Of a stretch of DNA of 36,207 nt, positions 5,282-36,207 are shown piece after piece (within the stretch, counting starts at the first letter, position 1; every line of letters starts with the position of its first letter). The DNA comes from a virus. Taxonomy: Duplodnaviria; Heunggongvirae; Uroviricota; Caudoviricetes. The DNA is taken from the IMG/VR virus record IMGVR_UViG_2541047897_000007, positions 1 to 36,207 of that record. One strand, 5' to 3'. The notes under the pieces are model-generated. The model ran no database searches and was not told where the DNA came from. It saw only the letters and a list, made by a program, of their open reading frames with translations. Position numbers and translations under genes: made by a program.

Positions 5282-5402
5282 GAAACCAGAACATGCACAC
5301 ACAAAAAAACCGCTTGCCATGCCTCAATCGGTCAGGTTACATTTCCGCTGCACCTCATAAAACGGGTGCCGGGATTCTCAACCCGATACAGAGCAAAGCG
5401 CA

Positions 5403-5428
5403 TAACCGCGCAAGCGGTTTTTTTGTGC
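5403..5428 (+). terminator. candidate rho-independent terminator
   Basis: aaccgc-GCAA-gcggtt hairpin followed by ttttt; also forms one arm of an 18-nt perfect inverted repeat with 5299..5316. Confidence 0.35.
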
Positions 5429-5603
5429 GTACTGTATTGCCACGTCTTTTTCGCGTCAGAATTATGGCGGGGCGTACGGGGCCGACTTCGGTCGGGCCGG
5501 ATTCTTTGCTCTCCGGTGTTGAGAACCCTGTACGTCTCGCCACCCCGAGATTCTCAACTCTGGATGGTGAGTTATTTCTATCACCGAGCAAAGAGGCCAC
5601 ACC

Positions 5604-6278: not shown

Positions 6279-9101
6279 ATGACGGCAGAGTACATCAGGG
6301 ACTGGCAACAACCGCGCCACGCAGTGGGGCGTGAAGGAACGGGGATCCCCGCTCCTGAATCCGCGCTTTCCTCCTGGCTGGATGCCTACCGGGTAGAGAA
6401 CGAGCGCCGCCAGGAAATGGCTGATGCGGCGTTCTCCGCCACGCCGCTGGGCAACCTGATTAATAAAAGCCTGGACGCACAGGAAAAACAGGACAAAACC
6501 ATCACACTGGCAGGAGACGCCAGAAAACAGGCACGCGGCGCAGTGGATGAAGCCATGACCTCGCTGCGCCTGCTGCCGTCCTATCTGCGCGATCCGCTTA
6601 TTCGCCACCTCTCCTTCCTGCGCAAAAAACAGGAAGCCGATCGCCGGAAAGGCAAAAAGAGCTGGCAGGCGGAACGCTATGCACGCGGAACCCTGCGCAA
6701 AATATTCGAACGTCTGGACCGCACCGATCACCGCTGGCTGACACCGGGTTATCGCTCCCTTGCCGGACGCGAACGCCTGGACGATTTGCTTTACCTGCCG
6801 CAGCTCAACAAACACCAGATACAGACGCTGGCCACCATGACGGCGGCGATGTTCAGCAGCACCTTCGAAAAACTCTGCGATGGCTTTGGCGCGACTGATG
6901 GCGAACTGACCATGGATGTAACGCTGAAGGCGTATCAGATGCTGGCCCGCATGGCGTTACACCTGCACGCCATGCCTCCACATTATGACGCACTGACAAC
7001 AGACAAAGACCGGAGGAACGAACCGGACACAGAGCTGCTGCCGGGCGCAATCCTTCGCCTGACCTGTGCGGAATGGTGGAAACGCAAACTGTGGCTGTTA
7101 CGTTGCGAGTGGAGAGAAGAACAACTCCGCGCCGCCTGTCTGGTTTCCAGAAAAACATCGCCCTATCTGAGCCAGGACGCGTTAAGCGAGTTTCGCGCAC
7201 AGCGCGAGAAAACACGCGATTTCCTGAAAAGTTTCATGCTGGAAAACGAAGACGGGTTCACGATTGATCTCGAGACAGTGTATTACGCGGGAGTAAGTAA
7301 CCCGGTTCACCGTAAGGCAGAAATGATGGCCACCATGAAGGGACTGGAACTTCTGGCCGAAGCCCGTGGCGACAGAGCGGTGTTTCTGACTGTCACCTGC
7401 CCGTCAAAATACCACGCAACAACGGAGAACGGTCATCCGAACCCCAAATGGAACGGGGCCACCATGCGCGACTCCAGCGATTACCTGGTTAACACGTTTT
7501 TTGCGGCGGTCCGCAAAAAACTGAACCGCGACGGCCTGCGCTGGTATGGCATCCGCACGGTGGAGCCTCACCATGACGGCACCGTGCACTGGCATATGAT
7601 GGTCTTTGCTCATCCGGAAGAAATCGACAGCATCGTGGCCATCACCCGCGATATTGCCATTCAGGAAGACCGCCACGAGCTGGGCAATGATATTACTCCG
7701 CGCTTTAAAGTGGAGTATGTCGACGGCTCAAAAGGCACACCAACCAGCTATATCGCGACCTACATCGGGAAAAACCTGGACAGCCGCGCCGTGGATGGCA
7801 TCGACCCGAAAACGGGCAAACCACGCGTTGACCACGAAACCGGAAAATCAATGGCCGAGAGCGTGGAGCGCGCCATCGGTTGGGCACGCCTTCACCGGGT
7901 CCGCCAGTTCCAGTTCTTTGGCATCCCCTCCCGTCAGGTGTGGCGTGAACTCCGCCGCCTTGCCAGCCAGATGGCACGCAACCCGGAAGGCCCGCAACGG
8001 CTGAAGGATGACGCAATGGATGCGGTACTCGCTGCCGCTGATGCCGGATGTTTTGCCACCTACATAGAGAAACAGGGCGGCGTACTTGTTCCACGCAAAG
8101 ACTACCTGATTCGCACCGCCTACGACCTCGCCGATGAGCTGAACGATTACGGCGAACAGAGTGTACAGATTTACGGGATCTGGTCACCACTCATCGGGGA
8201 ATCCTCCCGTGTGTGCACGCACCCGGATAACTGGAAGCTGGTAAGACGTAAACCGGAACAGGAAGGCAGCGCCCACGAAAATGGTTTTGACCTTCAGGGC
8301 GGCCCTGCCGCCCCTTGGACTCGTGGCAATAACTGTCCCCGTGTACAGGAAACGGACAACAACGGGACAGAACAGCCGGAAGAACGGCCAGCACCGTGGC
8401 CGCAGCTCCCTGACGGCGTTGAAGTGAACGAATGGATGCGCTCACTGAAACGGCACGAACGCCGGGCGCTGATGCGTTCGCTTCGTGACAAACAGGCAAA
8501 AAACAGCAGTGATGAAATGCAGAGCTGGACACAGAGCCGCAAACAGCAGCGGCCTTTGCCTGATAACCACGAATTACTCGCTAAAGAATGGCGGGAGTCT
8601 GCTGAATCTCTCGGCCTGCATATCGGTGAACAACAGATGCAGCACCTGTTACGGGGCGGCAGTCTGTACGTTGACGGCAGCATCATTGCACCGCAGGGAT
8701 TTGAAATTGTACGCAAACCGGATACCCGCCCGGACAGCCGAATCACGCAGCTCTGGCAGCGCCTGAGCCGTAATCACGGCGTAAGCAGCACGGAGATCCG
8801 CCATAACCCGGTCGCCAGCTATCTGGCGCAACTGGGGGCATCAGACCCTGAAGCCGCCGCACGCCTGGCATCCACACTTCAGCAGGACCAGAACACCATG
8901 AAAACACCCGTTACCGTGCTTTCTGACATGCTGCGCGCCATCCGCGACACAGAGCACGCACAGAGAATCAGTGAAACCACTGAACGCGCCCGCCGCAAAG
9001 CAGACCTGCTGCGGGGTGGCCTGACCATTGGAAACAAAAAACAGACAGAAACGGGATTCACAAATCCCGTAAATGAGCAAAAAACGCGCCGCGATATATG
9101 A
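6279..9101 (+). CDS. A: replication initiation endonuclease (P2 gpA-like, rolling-circle HUH nuclease)
   Basis: 940-aa ORF; HUH-type motif VHWHMMVFAH and tyrosine pair in SYIATYIGK; position after the early operon as in P2. Confidence 0.9.
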   Translation: MTAEYIRDWQQPRHAVGREGTGIPAPESALSSWLDAYRVENERRQEMADAAFSATPLGNLINKSLDAQEKQDKTITLAGDARKQARGAVDEAMTSLRLLPSYLRDPLIRHLSFLRKKQEADRRKGKKSWQAERYARGTLRKIFERLDRTDHRWLTPGYRSLAGRERLDDLLYLPQLNKHQIQTLATMTAAMFSSTFEKLCDGFGATDGELTMDVTLKAYQMLARMALHLHAMPPHYDALTTDKDRRNEPDTELLPGAILRLTCAEWWKRKLWLLRCEWREEQLRAACLVSRKTSPYLSQDALSEFRAQREKTRDFLKSFMLENEDGFTIDLETVYYAGVSNPVHRKAEMMATMKGLELLAEARGDRAVFLTVTCPSKYHATTENGHPNPKWNGATMRDSSDYLVNTFFAAVRKKLNRDGLRWYGIRTVEPHHDGTVHWHMMVFAHPEEIDSIVAITRDIAIQEDRHELGNDITPRFKVEYVDGSKGTPTSYIATYIGKNLDSRAVDGIDPKTGKPRVDHETGKSMAESVERAIGWARLHRVRQFQFFGIPSRQVWRELRRLASQMARNPEGPQRLKDDAMDAVLAAADAGCFATYIEKQGGVLVPRKDYLIRTAYDLADELNDYGEQSVQIYGIWSPLIGESSRVCTHPDNWKLVRRKPEQEGSAHENGFDLQGGPAAPWTRGNNCPRVQETDNNGTEQPEERPAPWPQLPDGVEVNEWMRSLKRHERRALMRSLRDKQAKNSSDEMQSWTQSRKQQRPLPDNHELLAKEWRESAESLGLHIGEQQMQHLLRGGSLYVDGSIIAPQGFEIVRKPDTRPDSRITQLWQRLSRNHGVSSTEIRHNPVASYLAQLGASDPEAAARLASTLQQDQNTMKTPVTVLSDMLRAIRDTEHAQRISETTERARRKADLLRGGLTIGNKKQTETGFTNPVNEQKTRRDI

Positions 9102-9146
9102 AGCGCGCATAAAACAGGCAAAAACGGGATTTCAGAATCCCGTAAA
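9049..9146. promoter_or_regulatory. two 25-bp dyad repeats, candidate centromere/operator for the downstream parMR-like operon
   Basis: aaacgggattcacaaatcccgtaaa (9049..9073) and aaacgggatttcagaatcccgtaaa (9122..9146), each an 8-bp-arm inverted repeat, spaced 73 bp; the first lies inside the 3' end of gene A. Confidence 0.4.
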
Positions 9147-9177
9147 CGATTAATTAATCAACATAAGGAAAAGCGAC

Positions 9178-10137
9178 ATGAAAATTTGTATCGATGACGG
9201 CTCCACCAACATCAAGCTGGCATGGACTGAGAACGGCGAACGCCGCAACGCCATCAGCCCAAACAGCTTCAAGTCGGAATGGTCTGCGCCGTTCGGTGGC
9301 ACGCAGCCCGCGAACTACATGCTTGATGGCGTGCGCTATGGTTTTGATCCGGTCAGCGATCGCTTTGTCCAGACGACCGACACGCAATACCAGTACAGCG
9401 ATGTGAATGTCATTGCCATTCATCACGCGCTGGTCAAATCAGGCATCACACCACAGGAAGTGGATGTGGTTGTCACCCTGCCACTGAGCGAATATTTCGA
9501 CACAAACGCACAGCCGGTCATGGCCAACATCAACCGCAAAAAAGCAAACGTCATGCGCCCGGTGGCGTACCAGAACGGAAAAGCATTCACTATCCGTAAC
9601 GTACGGGTTATGCCTGAATCCATTCCGGCTGGTTTTAAAGCACTGGCTGACATGAGTCCGTTTGAATCCCTGCTGATTGTGGATTTAGGCGGAACCACGC
9701 TGGATGTGGCAAAGGTTCAGGGACAACTGGCAGGTATCAGCCAGGTGTTTTGCGATCCACACGTAGGCGTTTCCCTGATGGCCGATGCCGTACTGTCGGT
9801 GATGGCCACTAACGGTATGCGTACCAGTCACCACATCGCCAATACCATTATCGAACATCGCCATGATGAAGCTTGGCTGCGCCAGCACATCCACAATGAC
9901 GCGCATTACGACAGCCTGATAGCGGTTATTCGTGAAAAGGAAGAAACACTGAAACAACGCGTGATCCGCGCGCTGGCGGGTTTTTCGGGTTACGGGCGGG
10001 TGATGGTTGTCGGTGGCGGGGCGGAGATTGTGGCACCCGCTATCCGCGAAGCCTGCGGAGTTAATGCGACTTTCATCGCGGACGGGGTGCCACAGTTTGC
10101 TCTGGTTAATGGGCTGTACGCAATGGACAAGGAGTAA
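9178..10137 (+). CDS. parM: ParM/StbA-like actin-type segregation ATPase
   Basis: 319-aa ORF; actin-fold motifs IDDGSTNIKL, IVDLGGTTLD and VVGGGAE; close match along its length to plasmid R1 ParM as recalled from memory. Confidence 0.85.
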   Translation: MKICIDDGSTNIKLAWTENGERRNAISPNSFKSEWSAPFGGTQPANYMLDGVRYGFDPVSDRFVQTTDTQYQYSDVNVIAIHHALVKSGITPQEVDVVVTLPLSEYFDTNAQPVMANINRKKANVMRPVAYQNGKAFTIRNVRVMPESIPAGFKALADMSPFESLLIVDLGGTTLDVAKVQGQLAGISQVFCDPHVGVSLMADAVLSVMATNGMRTSHHIANTIIEHRHDEAWLRQHIHNDAHYDSLIAVIREKEETLKQRVIRALAGFSGYGRVMVVGGGAEIVAPAIREACGVNATFIADGVPQFALVNGLYAMDKE

Positions 10138-10141
10138 ACCA

Positions 10142-10453
10142 ATGACGACACCAACCAGACGGATAAGTTTCTATCTGAAGCCCGCCGCCGTCAAGAACGA
10201 AGGCGAAGCATGCGCCTGGCTGGACAGCCTTACACCAGAAGCCCGCAAAAGTGGTCAACGTGTGGCTTTTCTGGCCGGACTGGCACTTATGAAAATTAAT
10301 CCGGCAGAGGCTTACCGACTGGCTGCATGGGCTGACGATGAAGCGTTATCCCTGACACAAACCAGGACAGAACGCCCCGTGTCACAGCCAGCACCAACCG
10401 CACAGATAACCAGTCAGATGGCCGGAAATATCCGGGCGTTATTTCCCGAATAA
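10142..10453 (+). CDS. parR: ParR-like centromere-binding adaptor (candidate)
   Basis: 103-aa product from the ATG at 10142 with AGGAG RBS; RRISFYLKP...AGLAL...LFPE resembles R1 ParR as recalled from memory; position directly after the parM-like gene. Confidence 0.55.
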   Translation: MTTPTRRISFYLKPAAVKNEGEACAWLDSLTPEARKSGQRVAFLAGLALMKINPAEAYRLAAWADDEALSLTQTRTERPVSQPAPTAQITSQMAGNIRALFPE

Positions 10454-10516
10454 CACAACATCAGGGCGCATCCGCCCTGATGACTTTAACCCGGGAACAT
10501 AAACAAGGGGGACACA

Positions 10517-10849
10517 ATGCAACACATTGACAGAGAAAAAGCGCAGCGACTGATTGAGCGGATGGAAGCGCTGGCGCAAGAAGAAAATGTCAACATCCAA
10601 AAAATAGCTGAATGTGGCCAGATAGTTCTTCGTCGTGAAAAAGACCTCAAACAACTGATGTCTGGCAAAACCAGCAAAACATGGGATTCAGGCGAGGAAA
10701 TGATTTATTGCAGCTTCTGCAATAAATCCCAGTACGAAGTCACAAAGGTGATTGCTGGACCGTCTGTTTACATCTGCAATGAGTGCGTGGATTTGTGCAA
10801 TGAAATTATCAGGAGAGAAGTGGCAGACAAAAAGGGAAAAAACACATGA
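10517..10849 (+). CDS. stand-alone ClpX-type C4 zinc-finger (ZBD) domain protein
   Basis: 110-aa ORF with strong RBS; C-terminal [38 protein letters not shown] is near-identical in pattern to the E. coli ClpX N-terminal zinc-binding domain, including the spacing of all four Cys; no AAA+ module follows. Confidence 0.75.
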
Positions 10850-11160
10850 ACAGAAAACAAAAACAAGAGTTGAAATACTTTTTACGTAAAGAAATTGCCA
10901 GGCTTGAAGATGCAGAATCACGATCATCAGAAATTCCGTTCGGAATGGATATCAACGACGCCCGTATGCTCCAGGCATACCGTATAGCTCAGGCTGCACT
11001 ACAGGCAAAACCGTCAGATGGACTGGTTAGAGCAGTACGTTTCTATGAACTGGTAAAGCGTGAGAATCCGCCAACCGAAACCGGAGCATGGAAAGACGCT
11101 GTTGACTGGGTGCTCAGAGAAGCTTGCCAGACTGTAAACATTGGTATCAAAGGAGAGTGA
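10846..11160 (+). CDS. hypothetical protein
   Basis: 104-aa ORF, start overlaps the upstream stop. Confidence 0.55.
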
Positions 11161-11162
11161 GA

Positions 11163-11654
11163 GTGCAGATTTCACCGGTTACTCTTCGTGTTGCGAAGGC
11201 ATTTATATCCAGACATCACCGACACAATAAACCCCCGGTGGGGCATAAATTCAGCATTGGTCTGAGAAATGATGCCGGAGAATTGATAGGTGTGGCGACA
11301 GCCGGTCGACCTGTTGCACGACATTTGGACGATGGATTAACGCTTGAAGTAAATCGCACATGTACCACAGGAGAACGCAACGCTAACAGCGCGCTTTATG
11401 GTGCTGTCTGGCGGGCAGCAAAAGCTATGGGTTATCAACGTTGTATTACGTACACCCGGGCAGATGAATCAGGAGCATCTCTTCGCGCAGCTGGTTTTGT
11501 TCGTGTGAAAGAGCTTCCTCCAAGAAAAAGCTGGGCGGAATCAAGCGTCGCCCTGCGGAGTAAACGCGATCCGGTCGGAAACGGTGGTGTTCCTCGTGTG
11601 CTCTGGGAAATCAGGAGAATGAGTACCACTGGCATTCGCATCAAAGGAGAGTGA
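11163..11654 (+). CDS. hypothetical protein (weak GNAT-like resemblance)
   Basis: GTG start at 11163 with AGGAG 6 nt upstream preferred over the overlapping ATG at 11124; 163 aa. Confidence 0.45.
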   Translation: MQISPVTLRVAKAFISRHHRHNKPPVGHKFSIGLRNDAGELIGVATAGRPVARHLDDGLTLEVNRTCTTGERNANSALYGAVWRAAKAMGYQRCITYTRADESGASLRAAGFVRVKELPPRKSWAESSVALRSKRDPVGNGGVPRVLWEIRRMSTTGIRIKGE

Positions 11655-28707: not shown

Positions 28708-31700
28708 TCAATCTTTATCGTAAAAACTGCCACGCCCGGCACGGGCGCGCCGTTCCATTTCTGCCCTGACCATTTCACCGACCAGTTTCGCCAGTTCGCG
28801 GGGATTCTGCGTAACAACGTTATGCAGATGAACATGAATTTCACCACCAAATCCGGAGGCAACAGGCTCCCGGTTACGGGAAGTTACAGGAACTGATGCC
28901 ACTGGCGATCGTATGGCCTCCGCCACCGGGCGGGAGCTGGCCGCAACAACAGGGACCAGCGCCGGAGGCAGCGGAGCCGGGACCACGGGTGTGGTATTAA
29001 TTGCGGGGGCAGGCTTACTGACCTGCGCAATCTTCCGCTCCTGCCACTCCCCACCAGGGACCAGCGCCAGAGGCAGCGGAGCAGGGACCACGGGTGTGAT
29101 ATTAATTGCGGGGGCAGGCTTACTGACCTGCGCAATCTTCCGCTCCTGCCACTCCCCACCAGGGACCAGCGCCGGAGGCAGCGGAGCAGGGACCACGGGT
29201 GTGATATTAATTGCGGAGGCAGGCTTACTGACCTGCGCAATCTTCCGCTCCTGCCACTCCCCACCAGGGACCAGCGCCAGAGGCAGCGGAGCAGGGACCA
29301 CGGGTGTGATATTAATTGCGGGGGCAGGCTTACTGACCTGCGCAATCTTCCGCTCCTGCCACTCCCCACCAGGGACCAGCGCCAGAGGCAGCGGAGCAGG
29401 GACCACGGGTGTGATATTAATTGCGGGGGCAGGCTTACTGACCTGCGCAATCTTCCGCTCCTGCCACTCCCCACCAGGGACCAGCGCCGGAGGCAGCGGA
29501 GCAGGGACCACGGGTGTGATATTAATTGCGGAGGCAGGCTTACTGACCTGCGCAATCTTCCGCTCCTGCCACTCCCCACGAACGGCAAGTGCGCGGGGCA
29601 GGTTCTTAAAGACAATATCACCGGGGCCAATGCGTTTTTTCGTCTCATCAACCAGCTTACCTGTGTTATCAGCAATTTTGCTGAGTCTGCGTAGCGTACC
29701 GGTATTGCTGTCTGTGAGCGGTTTGTTGTCTTTGGGTTTATCGCCTCCGGTGCCATTGCCATTTTCCGCAGACTTCGGCGGATTGATTTTCGCAATGTCT
29801 CCCTGAAACAGAGCAACCTTGTCCTGAAGAATGGCCGCACGCTGTGCGTCTTCAATTTTCTTGCGCGCCCTTTCCGCTTCATCCGGAAGGACGCCAAGTT
29901 TTTCAAGTATCCACGCCAGCGTATCCAGTAGCATTTTTGCAGGTGTCAGAACAAGCTGTAACGCACCGCCAAGAACGTTACCGAATATCTCGCCAGCACT
30001 GGTACATTTATCCAGCGTTTCCTTGCTGGACTCCATCGGTGACAGCAGCGATTTAAACCAGTTAAAGACCTGAATAATCCCATCGCGCACGACATCAAAA
30101 ACAGGACCGAACCGTTCAAAGGTTTCGCGCAACGGAGCCAGTCGTTCCATAATCCCGTTGAACACCCCGATATAAAACGCCTTGATGGGTTCCCAGTATT
30201 TCCAGATGAGAACTGCCGCAGCCACAAACGCGGCAACAATCAATCCGACCGGACTGAACAGCGCCCCGATAGCGCCACCCAGCAACGAGATGGAACCTGT
30301 TACCATTCCCCATAGTGCTGGCAGCACCCTGACGACATTCATTGATCCTGTCAGGAGAGAAAAACCGAGACGTAACGTAGCCAGCTTCCCGTGAAGCACC
30401 CCAATAACCAGAGACAACGAACCAACCGTTGCTGTTGTCGCCAGCAGTGCGCCTCCCGCTATCAGTAACTGGCGCGTCAGTACCGGATGGGCCTGCGCCA
30501 GCGCCGTCACCTTTGAGACCACCCGCGTGAGCCACTGCGTGACAGAACGCAGCGGACCGTCAATCAGATCTGCAATGCGGATGCGCAACCCTTCCCATGC
30601 ACTGCCGAGTGATTTCAGATCGCCATCAAGGTTGTTGGCCATAACCTTTGCCGTGCGTTCAGCCTCACCGCGTGCGCCCTCAAGTTCTTTTCTCAGTTTG
30701 GGTAAGGAACCGTCACCCGCCGCATCAACGAGTGCCATAAACGATGTGAAAGCCTCTTCCCCGGCGATGTCCTTAAAGAAGGATACCCGGTCAACTTCCC
30801 CGTATTTGCGGGTGGCTTTATAAAGGTCAGCCAGCAGATCTTCCATCGGGCGCATTTTGCCCCCGGCATCCGAGACGGACACGCCCAGCTCTTTCAGAGC
30901 TTCTGCCGCCGCCTTTGGCGGTGATGCCAGACGAGCCAGGCTGGCACGCATTGCCGTCCCGGCATCACTCCCTCTGATGCCCATATTCGCCAGCACGCCC
31001 GCCATCGCTGCGGCCTGCTCCAGCGATATCCCCAGCTTACCCGCCACCGGACCGGCATATTTCATGGTTTCGCCCAGTGCGCGAAGGTCAGTGTTGGTAC
31101 GGGTAAACGCTGCGGTGAGTGTGTCTCCGACCCGGTCCATCTGGTCAGCAGAAAGGCCGAACTGCGTCAGGATATTTGAGCCAATATCTGCCGTCTCGCC
31201 GAGATCCATACCGCCAGCCGTTGCCATGCTCAGTACGCCGGGAAGCGCAGCCTGAATGGCCTGCGGAGTGAAGCCTGCCATTGCAAGAAATGCCTGCCCA
31301 CTGGCGGCATCGCCTGCGGTGAACTGCGTTTCAGAGCCAAGTTTTAACGCCTGCTCACGCAGCGCCTTAAACTGCGGGCTGTTTTTGTCGATTCGCGTCA
31401 GTGCCTGAACGCGGGACATCTCTTTCCCGAACCCGATCGCAGGCTGCAAAAAACGCCCGGCAGCATAGCCGCCAGCCGCTGCCGCACCAATTGCCAGCGC
31501 ACCACCTGTTTTCAGTTTTCCTGCTGTTTCCTGCGCGCGCGAATACCGCTCACGCGCACGCGTTACACGCGCAAGCGCCTGCTGTTCGCGTTCAAGCTGA
31601 TTGTTGTACTGTTCGGTGCGTCTGATGGCCTGCTGGATGGTGTTATCGCTGCCTGTCAGGGAAATGCCGTGGCGTTTCAGCTCTCCGCCAAGCTCCCGCA

Positions 31701-35877: not shown

Positions 35878-36066
35878 CAGGCAGAATTGCCGGAGTAACA
35901 AAAAAGCGATAGATTACGTGCGGGTGCCTTTCGGCTGATGGTCGGAGGGAATACCCGAAGGCCGGATGTGGAAAGGCCCCGGAAAACATTTCTGTTTAAC
36001 CGAGGCCCTAACCCGTCAACCTAGCAAGTGATAGGTTAGCGCCTCTCCAACAAAGGAGCAAGCGCT

Positions 36067-36207
36067 ATGTCGCAAAAATCGCTTACGGCCATCACGTTCT
36101 GCGTGACGGTAATCCTCATCATCTGGATGCTGCACGGTTCGCTGTGTGAAATACGGATGAGCTTCTGGGGAGCGGAGTTTGCGGCGTTCTTACAGTGTAA
36201 GCAGTAA
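36067..36207 (+). CDS. hok: Hok/Gef-family type I toxin (small membrane peptide)
   Basis: 46-aa ORF read by hand; TM helix LTAITFCVTVILIIWML followed by GSLCEIR...EFAAF, matching the Hok signature SLCEIR...EVAAF as recalled; hairpin-rich leader upstream. Confidence 0.6.
   Translation: MSQKSLTAITFCVTVILIIWMLHGSLCEIRMSFWGAEFAAFLQCKQ

Follow-up and report, generated by a model that had tools for sequence, protein, structure and literature searches.

The ParM/ParR partition pair of a P88-like, P2-family prophage and its possible action on the free circular phage genome

Introduction

Why would a phage that integrates into the bacterial chromosome carry the genes of a plasmid-type partition system? 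The question is raised by the IMG/VR virus record IMGVR_UViG_2541047897_000007, a stretch of 36,207 nucleotides (referred to below as the window, i.e., the whole stretch that was analysed), which is the complete genome of a P88-like (Xuanwuvirus) prophage of the P2 family. In this stretch, a pair of genes related to parM and parR of plasmid R1 occupies positions 9178-10453 of the plus strand, exactly the span, from the parM start to the parR stop, that a preliminary description of the sequence had given. That description set out three possible roles, i.e., an episomal phase, the positioning of replicating phage DNA and a co-opted function such as exclusion, and committed itself to none of them.

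The evidence leans towards a form of the second role, in which the module, complete and kept by selection, is a type II segregation machine of the ParMRC class that acts on the free circular phage genome during replication by the gene A protein (gpA). The other two options fare less well, given the chromosomal location of nearly all copies, which speaks against a habitual plasmid, and the absence of matches in a PADLOC search, which lends no support to exclusion.

The presence of the genes is already known, as the RefSeq record of P88 annotates a “plasmid segregation protein ParM” and a “partition protein”, and the idea of an episome has been raised for these phages by Pfeifer et al. and Rousset et al. 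(2022; PMC9122126). What is added here comprises a distinct clade of phage ParMs with synteny across genera, the strength of the selection, the modular conservation of ParR, a non-canonical palindromic candidate centromere near the predicted origin of replication, the co-carried hok/sok locus, and a quantitative case against a stable plasmid state.

The ParM and ParR Proteins

The first gene, parM (9178-10137, plus strand), encodes an actin-like segregation ATPase of 319 amino acids, with matches in Pfam, PHROG and the PDB. Residues 1-157 match the Pfam domain StbA_N (PF06406; 5.3e-81, 270.7 bits against a cutoff of 24.6) and residues 159-316 the ParM C-terminal domain (PF21523; 2e-68, 229.9 bits against a cutoff of 27.4), while the protein also matches PHROG 691 “partition protein” (3.3e-89). 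A phmmer search of the PDB aligned residues 2-316 with residues 2-318 of the solved R1 ParM (1MWK and others; E=7.2e-92), which, together with the two Pfam domains, bears out the earlier claim that the product resembles R1 ParM along its length. The motifs of nucleotide binding and hydrolysis are the same as those of R1 ParM, i.e., phosphate-1 DDGSTN..K, the PES glutamate, phosphate-2 DLGGTT and the adenosine motif GGGAE, and the segments quoted in the preliminary description are all present in the product of 9178-10137 (within IDDGSTNIKL, IHHAL, VMPESIPAG, IVDLGGTTLD and VVGGGAE).

The second gene, parR (10142-10453, plus strand), encodes a predicted centromere-binding adaptor of 103 amino acids. 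It was listed as an open reading frame of 10007-10453, in which the true start is the ATG at 10142, 4 nucleotides past the parM stop, and 10453 is the parR stop; the AAGGAG ribosome-binding site lies within the end of parM, and parR is evidently translationally coupled to it. The protein matches the Pfam family Plasmid_stab_B (ParR/StbB, PF10784; 1.9e-25, 88.9 bits against a cutoff of 25) and PHROG 2515 “partition protein” (1.5e-57), so that the profile searches recommended earlier found both the actin-like ATPase and the ParR family above the curated cutoffs.

A single ParR sequence matched no solved structure in the PDB. A profile of 19 phage ParRs had as its only significant PDB match the ParR/StbB protein of pB171 (2JD3; E=8e-4, residues 9-75 aligned with 11-76), and the value for 2JD3 was E=5.7e-15 with a profile of phage ParRs and two plasmid ParRs, in agreement with the earlier statement that this gene resembles parR. 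An AlphaFold2 model of the ParR monomer, of low confidence (mean predicted local distance difference test score, pLDDT, of 58; 19-sequence alignment), placed helices at residues 20-29, 32-52, 54-61 and 86-100 and left the N-terminal strand unresolved, as expected for an obligate dimer, and a Foldseek comparison of this low-confidence model with the PDB returned only noise and no match. The fold obtained in this manner was set aside, given the pLDDT of 58 and the noise, and the profile-sequence evidence was used in its place.

ParR is predicted to comprise an N-terminal domain of the ribbon-helix-helix type and, beyond a variable linker, a motif at the C-terminus that binds ParM. The allele families of the protein are 42-92% identical to one another, and they share the N-terminal RRISFYLKP, the LDSL/R..AFLAGLAL helices and the C-terminal NI..(L/F)FP, with a hypervariable linker at about residues 65-95; the plasmid ParRs encoded beside an R1-type ParM also have N96 and L100 of this last motif. 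Such a pattern is what an adaptor with one DNA site and one ParM to bind should show.

The variation in parR has a further aspect, in that ParM is at least 97% identical while parR splits into several allele families. Across positions 10196-10430 (parR codons about 18-96; loci L008-L087), the similarity to many relatives breaks at about codon 18, and recombination appears to extend from the adjacent cargo hotspot into the gene.

Conservation and Distribution of the Pair

The parM gene is under strong purifying selection, with a ratio of non-synonymous to synonymous substitution rates (dN/dS) of 0.059 among 72 unique sequences and a synonymous divergence (dS) of up to 0.21. Intact copies account for 83 of the 84 parM genes and 77 of the 78 parR genes. 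Degenerate copies are rare and include one parM cut to 182 amino acids and one parR cut to 79. In an IMG/VR contig (L079, 4958-5380), parR is scrambled and a parM segment (EEVDVV.TLPLSEYFDT) is partly duplicated behind it.

The parMR region is present in 1308 of 5426 complete Escherichia coli genomes (about 24%), and an identical ParM protein occurs in prophages that lie beside five different sets of host genes. Relatives of this ParM are found in P2-like prophages of Hafnia and Plesiomonas (62% identity), Serratia (58%) and Enterobacter (53%), each followed by a ParR, and the order gpA, parM-parR, portal is kept in Escherichia, Citrobacter, Hafnia, Plesiomonas, Serratia and Enterobacter. This fixed place contrasts with the rest of the interval between gpA and gpQ, where variable cargo accumulates.

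Given these data, it is very improbable that the pair is an inert passenger, i.e., a remnant of plasmid origin that is carried along by the essential gene next to it and has no current function. Such a remnant would be compatible with the fact that no phenotype is known and with the occasional degenerate copies described above, but it fits poorly with a dN/dS this low at a dS that reaches 0.21, with about 99% of the copies intact, with synteny held at 53-62% protein identity across genera, and with the presence of the pair in about a quarter of the complete E. coli genomes.

The relationship to plasmid proteins is more distant. The phage ParM is about 47-52% identical to the ParMs of IncF-type plasmids and of the phage-plasmid D6, and in a comparison that covered at least 5000 plasmid records with a ParM homologue, the best plasmid ParM among those listed was 52% identical and none fell between 60% and 95%, the exceptions to an identity below 60% being a few replicons that hold the prophage itself. 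Similarly, a tBLASTn search with ParR against plasmids found only records that bear the prophage. Among 50,697 phage records, a ParM of this kind was found only in P88-like phages and in D6 (47.8% identity), and in a neighbour-joining tree (no bootstrap) the phage-borne ParMs group apart from those of plasmids, integrative and conjugative elements (ICEs) and integrated plasmids. Taken at the level of sequence, ParMR is a long-standing part of the replication region in one lineage of P2-like phages.

Two other chromosomal loci carry ParM/ParR pairs of the R1 type, one in an integrated conjugative element of Dickeya (L095; TraG/TraU and integrase) and one in an integrated Rep3 plasmid of Mangrovibacter (L096), their ParMs being 49-50% identical to that of the window (49% for the Dickeya ICE). 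Phages are therefore not the only integrated elements with partition genes of the R1 type.

Integration and Extrachromosomal Copies

The window contains the gene set of the P2 family (integrase, helix-turn-helix repressor, gpA, portal, terminase, capsid, tail genes, gpD and Ogr), and its parMR region (9000-10700) is 97% identical to that of Escherichia phage P88 (Xuanwuvirus). It ends at the stop codon of the integrase gene (1-1002) on one side and at the stop of the hok gene on the other, with no host flank inside. Matching prophages with this left end and the exact ParM protein adjoin yecA/tyrP in chromosomes, and a sequence 100% identical to the right end abuts leuZ-cysT-glyW-pgsA in chromosomes of E. 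coli O145:H28, which places the integration site of the matching genomes, as read from these junctions, between leuZ and yecA. The term integrated is thus right for this type of phage, because both matching ends adjoin chromosomal host genes, and the preliminary description was correct in calling the element an integrating P2-like prophage. For P88 itself, attL and attR are present in strain K88 (PMC5285337).

In complete E. coli genomes, 1454 of the 1456 places that hold the region are chromosomal, and in all ten of the longest contigs with the exact ParM, host genes lie directly beside the integrase. A partition role must accordingly concern the transient free form of the phage. Contigs with the exact ParM have a size peak at 20-50 kb (71 of 198 blocks), which is not interpretable without coverage data.

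The search for extrachromosomal copies that had been suggested earlier yielded one candidate, which can be read in either direction and stands against this chromosomal count. The record NZ_CP148288.1 (pZ1323PEC0009-2), a circular PLSDB “plasmid” of 34,461 bp, carries the full genome of a P88-like phage, including the integrase, gpA, parMR and the structural genes, and it may be either induced phage DNA or a genuine episome. A 26.8-kb Shigella “plasmid” match was rejected as evidence, being a linear fragment riddled with IS1 in which most early genes are missing, and the other PLSDB matches are replicons of 0.2-1.4 Mb with an inserted prophage and not free phage genomes.

The right end of the prophage, after ogr, carries a toxin-antitoxin locus of the hok/sok type (35922-36207, plus strand). 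The Hok reading frame (36067-36207) matches Pfam HOK_GEF (3.7e-7, 30.1 bits against a cutoff of 22) and is annotated as Hok/Gef in matching genomes, while the Rfam family sok (RF01794) matches at 35922-36077 with 47.3 bits, below the gathering score of 59 (E=1.2e-9 in a search of 408 nucleotides). The locus is also present in the genome record of phage P88 (NC_026014). As parMR and hok/sok are carried together, the phage has homologues of both stability loci of R1, i.e., parA (ParMRC) and parB (hok/sok), and the second may possibly be a cooperating maintenance function.

These observations bear on the proposal that P88-like phages are facultative plasmids, kept as stable low-copy replicons instead of integrating, with ParMRC and hok/sok as their maintenance kit. 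The whole-genome circular record, the Plesiomonas relative on a phage-sized contig of 32 kb, the homologues of both R1 stability loci and the published suggestions of an episome all agree with this proposal, which is nonetheless unlikely. Besides the chromosomal count and the host genes found beside the integrase, the integrase is kept in every example, no plasmid-type replicon was seen beside the module, where gpA is the only replication initiator identified, and the lone circular record could be induced phage DNA, with the other small “plasmid” match being no more than the linear fragment mentioned above. Moreover, the DNA-binding end of ParR and the palindrome upstream of parM barely vary in E. 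coli, a constancy that incompatibility between plasmids sharing a cell would not produce.

There is thus little support for the view that these phages habitually live as plasmids. A second mode of lysogeny or carriage, in which the gpA replicon would persist as a low-copy circle for generations, held by a two-palindrome ParMRC and hok/sok, is similarly doubtful; if such switching between the plasmid and integrated states were real, about a quarter of the P2-like prophages of E. coli would be cryptic phage-plasmids.

The Replication Gene, the Origin and Transcription

Immediately upstream of parM lies gene A (6279-9101, plus strand), which encodes a rolling-circle replication endonuclease of the P2 type with 940 amino acids (Pfam Phage_GPA, 1.7e-130; PHROG 91 “nicking at origin of replication”, 5e-276) and 30% identity to the A protein of P2 over about 750 residues. 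The P2 record annotates the nick of the origin at 29892, inside gene A, and the surroundings of this nick are identical to the window at 28 of 36 bases (78%; window 8299-8334), though the proteins are only 30% identical. By this homology, a nick region is predicted inside gene A at 8296-8340 (plus strand), with the nick itself between 8314 and 8315. A presumed P2 origin sequence had no match in the window at three or fewer mismatches, and the annotated P2 record and the protein alignment were used instead.

The parM gene starts 76 bp past the gpA stop on the same strand, and a scan of the gap found no plus-strand terminator between the two genes. A scan for sigma-70 promoters around parM found none, which is uninformative, since the same scan missed the known promoter in the R1-type parC control. 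Directly 3' of the parR stop, the hairpin scan and the comparison with relatives revealed a GC-rich hairpin with a 10-bp stem (10459-10482, plus strand), which is probably a terminator at the end of the module, an insulator or a stabiliser of the RNA 3' end. A hairpin stands at the same place in most related loci; in some of them the CAGGGCG/CGCCCTG stems are kept with other loops, and in others the hairpin is unrelated and followed by plus-strand T-runs.

The absence of a plus-strand terminator after gpA, together with the hairpin after parR in most variants, suggests that the transcription unit of early replication closes with parMR. By homology with P2, gpA would belong to the early gene block controlled by the repressor, and parMR would then be expressed alongside the early replication genes.

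The Candidate Centromere

Repeats upstream of the pair, alluded to in the preliminary description, do exist. They are two direct repeats of 42 nucleotides (81% identical), each with a 20-bp palindrome of the form ACGGGATT-N4-AATCCCGT, and the palindromes are 73 bp, or about seven helical turns, apart and lie about 0.75 kb downstream of the predicted nick. Copy 1 (9035-9076, plus strand), with the palindrome ACGGGATTCACAAATCCCGT at 9051-9070, falls within the last codons of gene A, and copy 2 (9108-9149, plus strand), with the palindrome ACGGGATTTCAGAATCCCGT at 9124-9143, lies within the 76 bp that separate the gpA stop from the parM start. The degenerate palindrome pattern has a chance expectation of 0.13 per window, and two matches were reached in 2 of 100 shuffles.

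The core of copy 1 is kept in 83 related loci. Palindrome 2 was found in 83 of 83 parMR loci, with the core GGGATT-N4-AATCC preserved, and it is missing from L007, a P2-like sister prophage without parMR. In the relatives from Hafnia, Plesiomonas and Serratia, the ParR N-termini of which are nearly the same, a related CGGG(A/T) motif lies upstream of parM. Given this, copy 2 is the best candidate for a parC centromere/operator to which ParR may bind, and copy 1 is a candidate for either a ParR site or a hairpin of the minus-strand terminator type.

A parC of the R1 type, with about ten 11-bp direct iterons flanking the promoter, was not found upstream of parM, although the same tool recovers both iteron blocks in the control locus (L006). 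The hairpin at 10459-10482 was also considered as a centromere and rejected, in that similarity to many relatives stops at the parR stop and the hairpin sequence varies. The chance that the two palindromes constitute the centromere (parC) of the module is placed at about even.

Location in a Cargo Hotspot

The interval between gpA and gpQ of P2-like phages is a hotspot for exclusion and defence genes (PMC9122126), and this location invites the explanation that parMR is lysogenic-conversion cargo, expressed from the integrated prophage and acting in trans. In its variants, the pair might destabilise incoming plasmids or phage-plasmids with a related ParMRC through partition incompatibility, or it might perturb superinfecting phages or the organisation of the host cell. 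The old and tin genes of P2 provide precedents for such cargo, the variable cargo just past parR includes defence-like AAA+ and protease genes, the pair may have a promoter of its own, and its ParM is about half identical to those of IncF-type plasmids and D6.

A role of this kind is nevertheless quite unlikely. The PADLOC search found no match for ParM, ParR or the five downstream proteins, and the position and order next to gpA are fixed across genera, unlike those of true hotspot cargo. A cis-acting repeat (itself a candidate) travels with the pair, and the motif for the interaction of ParR with ParM is conserved, which a dominant-negative or decoy role would not need. The restriction of the ParR tBLASTn matches to prophage-bearing plasmid records also makes cross-binding to plasmid centromeres unlikely.

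Proposed Action on the Free Circular Genome

The favoured explanation, i.e., a segregation machine that serves the free phage genome, can be set out as a series of steps. Dimers of ParR would bind the palindromic sites at the gpA/parM junction, close to the predicted nick, and the conserved C-terminal helix of ParR would capture the ends of ATP-bound ParM filaments, which in growing would push the circular copies of the phage genome apart. The substrate would be the extrachromosomal circle that exists after infection or excision, during gpA-driven rolling-circle replication; the integrated prophage would not serve as one, and this choice of target is itself inferred. The gain for the phage would be an even spread of its genomes through the cell and into both daughters, which may result in more efficient replication and in less abortive loss before integration, re-integration or packaging.

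Several points weigh against this explanation. Palindrome 1 is also present in the sister prophage without parMR, and is not tied solely to the par module; both palindromes score as minus-strand intrinsic terminators, a role that is plausible because hotspot cargo can run leftward toward gpA, as annotated for old/tin of P2; and R1 has ten iterons where the phage has no more than two palindromes (four half-sites). The assignment of the centromere is consequently a weak one. In addition, parMR may have an autoregulated promoter of its own that is active in lysogens, and any benefit at the establishment of lysogeny needs gpA replication to take place at that stage, because partition cannot rescue a circle that does not replicate. 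The literature searched for the function or expression of ParM in P88 and P2-like phages offered only annotation and passing remarks.

Should this proposal be correct, the module would be the first actin segregation machine of the R1 type that serves an integrating virus. Such a role bears on how temperate phages avoid the abortive loss of their free circular form, on how prophages, ICEs and plasmids should be told apart, and on whether an unusually small palindromic centromere, here a candidate, can support ParM-driven segregation. The puzzle has already been recognised in print, and the value of the proposal lies therefore in testing rather than in discovery; the system is tractable, given that P88 is inducible and its lysogen is open to engineering (PMC5285337).

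Other Features of the Prophage

On the 3' side of parR, the first gene (10517-10849) encodes a protein of 110 amino acids that consists of scarcely more than a C4 zinc finger of the ClpX type (Pfam zf-C4_ClpX, 2.7e-18; PHROG 6797, a family of unknown function), and its counterpart in P88 is mis-annotated as “carboxylate-amine ligase”. This protein could be a mimic or a titrator of the ClpX N-domain. Further into the gpA-gpQ interval, a Mom-like protein of the XF1762 family (11124-11654, with an annotated start at about 11164) matches PHROG 1384 “Mom-like DNA modification protein” (9.5e-42) and, weakly, Pfam Mom (1.2e-4), and it may have an anti-restriction function through DNA modification.

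Two RNAs were identified by Rfam, both above their gathering scores, in the early region that has a gene for a “derepression protein” in relatives. They are the Hfq-binding RNA isrK (5350-5424; 63 bits) and the C4 antisense RNA (5460-5547; 78.5 bits), and this region (5350-5547) looks like an antisense-controlled antirepressor switch of the P1/P7 style in a P2-like phage. Between the integrase and the repressor, two minus-strand genes (1008-2035) encode a DUF2511/YebY-like protein of 115 amino acids and a protein of 216 amino acids with a Flk_N match in matching contigs. The guanine-cytosine content of positions 1001-2000 is 38.6%, against about 55% elsewhere, and the two genes are probably lysogenic-conversion cargo.

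Comparison with Known Systems

The closest relatives in molecular terms are the ParMRC systems (parA/stb) of R1 and the IncF plasmids. The ParMs align from end to end with identical nucleotide-binding motifs, the gene order is likewise parM followed by a coupled parR with repeats upstream, and the ParR belongs to the same family (PF10784), with the same N-terminal DNA-binding region and the C-terminal N..L motif. The half-site GGGATT of the phage palindrome also resembles the core GGGTTT (AAACCC on the other strand) of the R1-type iterons in the control locus. On the other hand, the carrier is an integrating P2-like phage and not a plasmid, its ParM is about 47% identical to the R1-type protein, and its ParR has 103 amino acids against about 116. 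The candidate centromere consists of two 20-bp palindromes, one of them inside the upstream gene, with four inverted half-sites, whereas in R1 ten direct half-sites, the 11-bp iterons, are grouped in two blocks of five around the promoter.

Among phages, D6 shares a partition protein of the StbA/ParM type, at the level of identity given above. The phage-plasmids D6, P1 and N15 differ from P88-like phages in that they lysogenise as plasmids and need partition at each division, while the P88-like phages integrate.

For the proposed mechanism, the closest functional analogy may be AlpAC of the Corynebacterium glutamicum prophage CGP3, where AlpC and AlpA are induced early and needed for efficient replication of the phage DNA (PMC4446434). 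As in the window, an integrated prophage encodes an actin-like ATPase and a DNA-binding adaptor (AlpC/AlpA, with alpS), and the CGP3 pair acts on the excised circular DNA. The likeness is one of function, with no homology claimed, given that AlpC is a distant actin-like protein and not an R1-type ParM, that AlpA is unrelated to PF10784, and that CGP3 has a Gram-positive host and belongs to a different type of phage.

A second precedent is SrpMRC, which stabilises the excised, rolling-circle-replicating form of SXT/R391 and works beside a toxin-antitoxin system (PMC4489591). Here too the element is normally integrated, and the combination of ParMRC and hok/sok with a gpA replicon in the phage echoes that of toxin-antitoxin and partition in R391, although SrpM and SrpR are distantly related to ParM and ParR of R1, SrpR has no recognisable domain, and SXT/R391 is conjugative and not viral. 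If the proposal is true, the precedents of AlpAC in Actinobacteria and of SrpMRC in an ICE would be extended to a very common family of E. coli prophages, present in about a quarter of the complete genomes.

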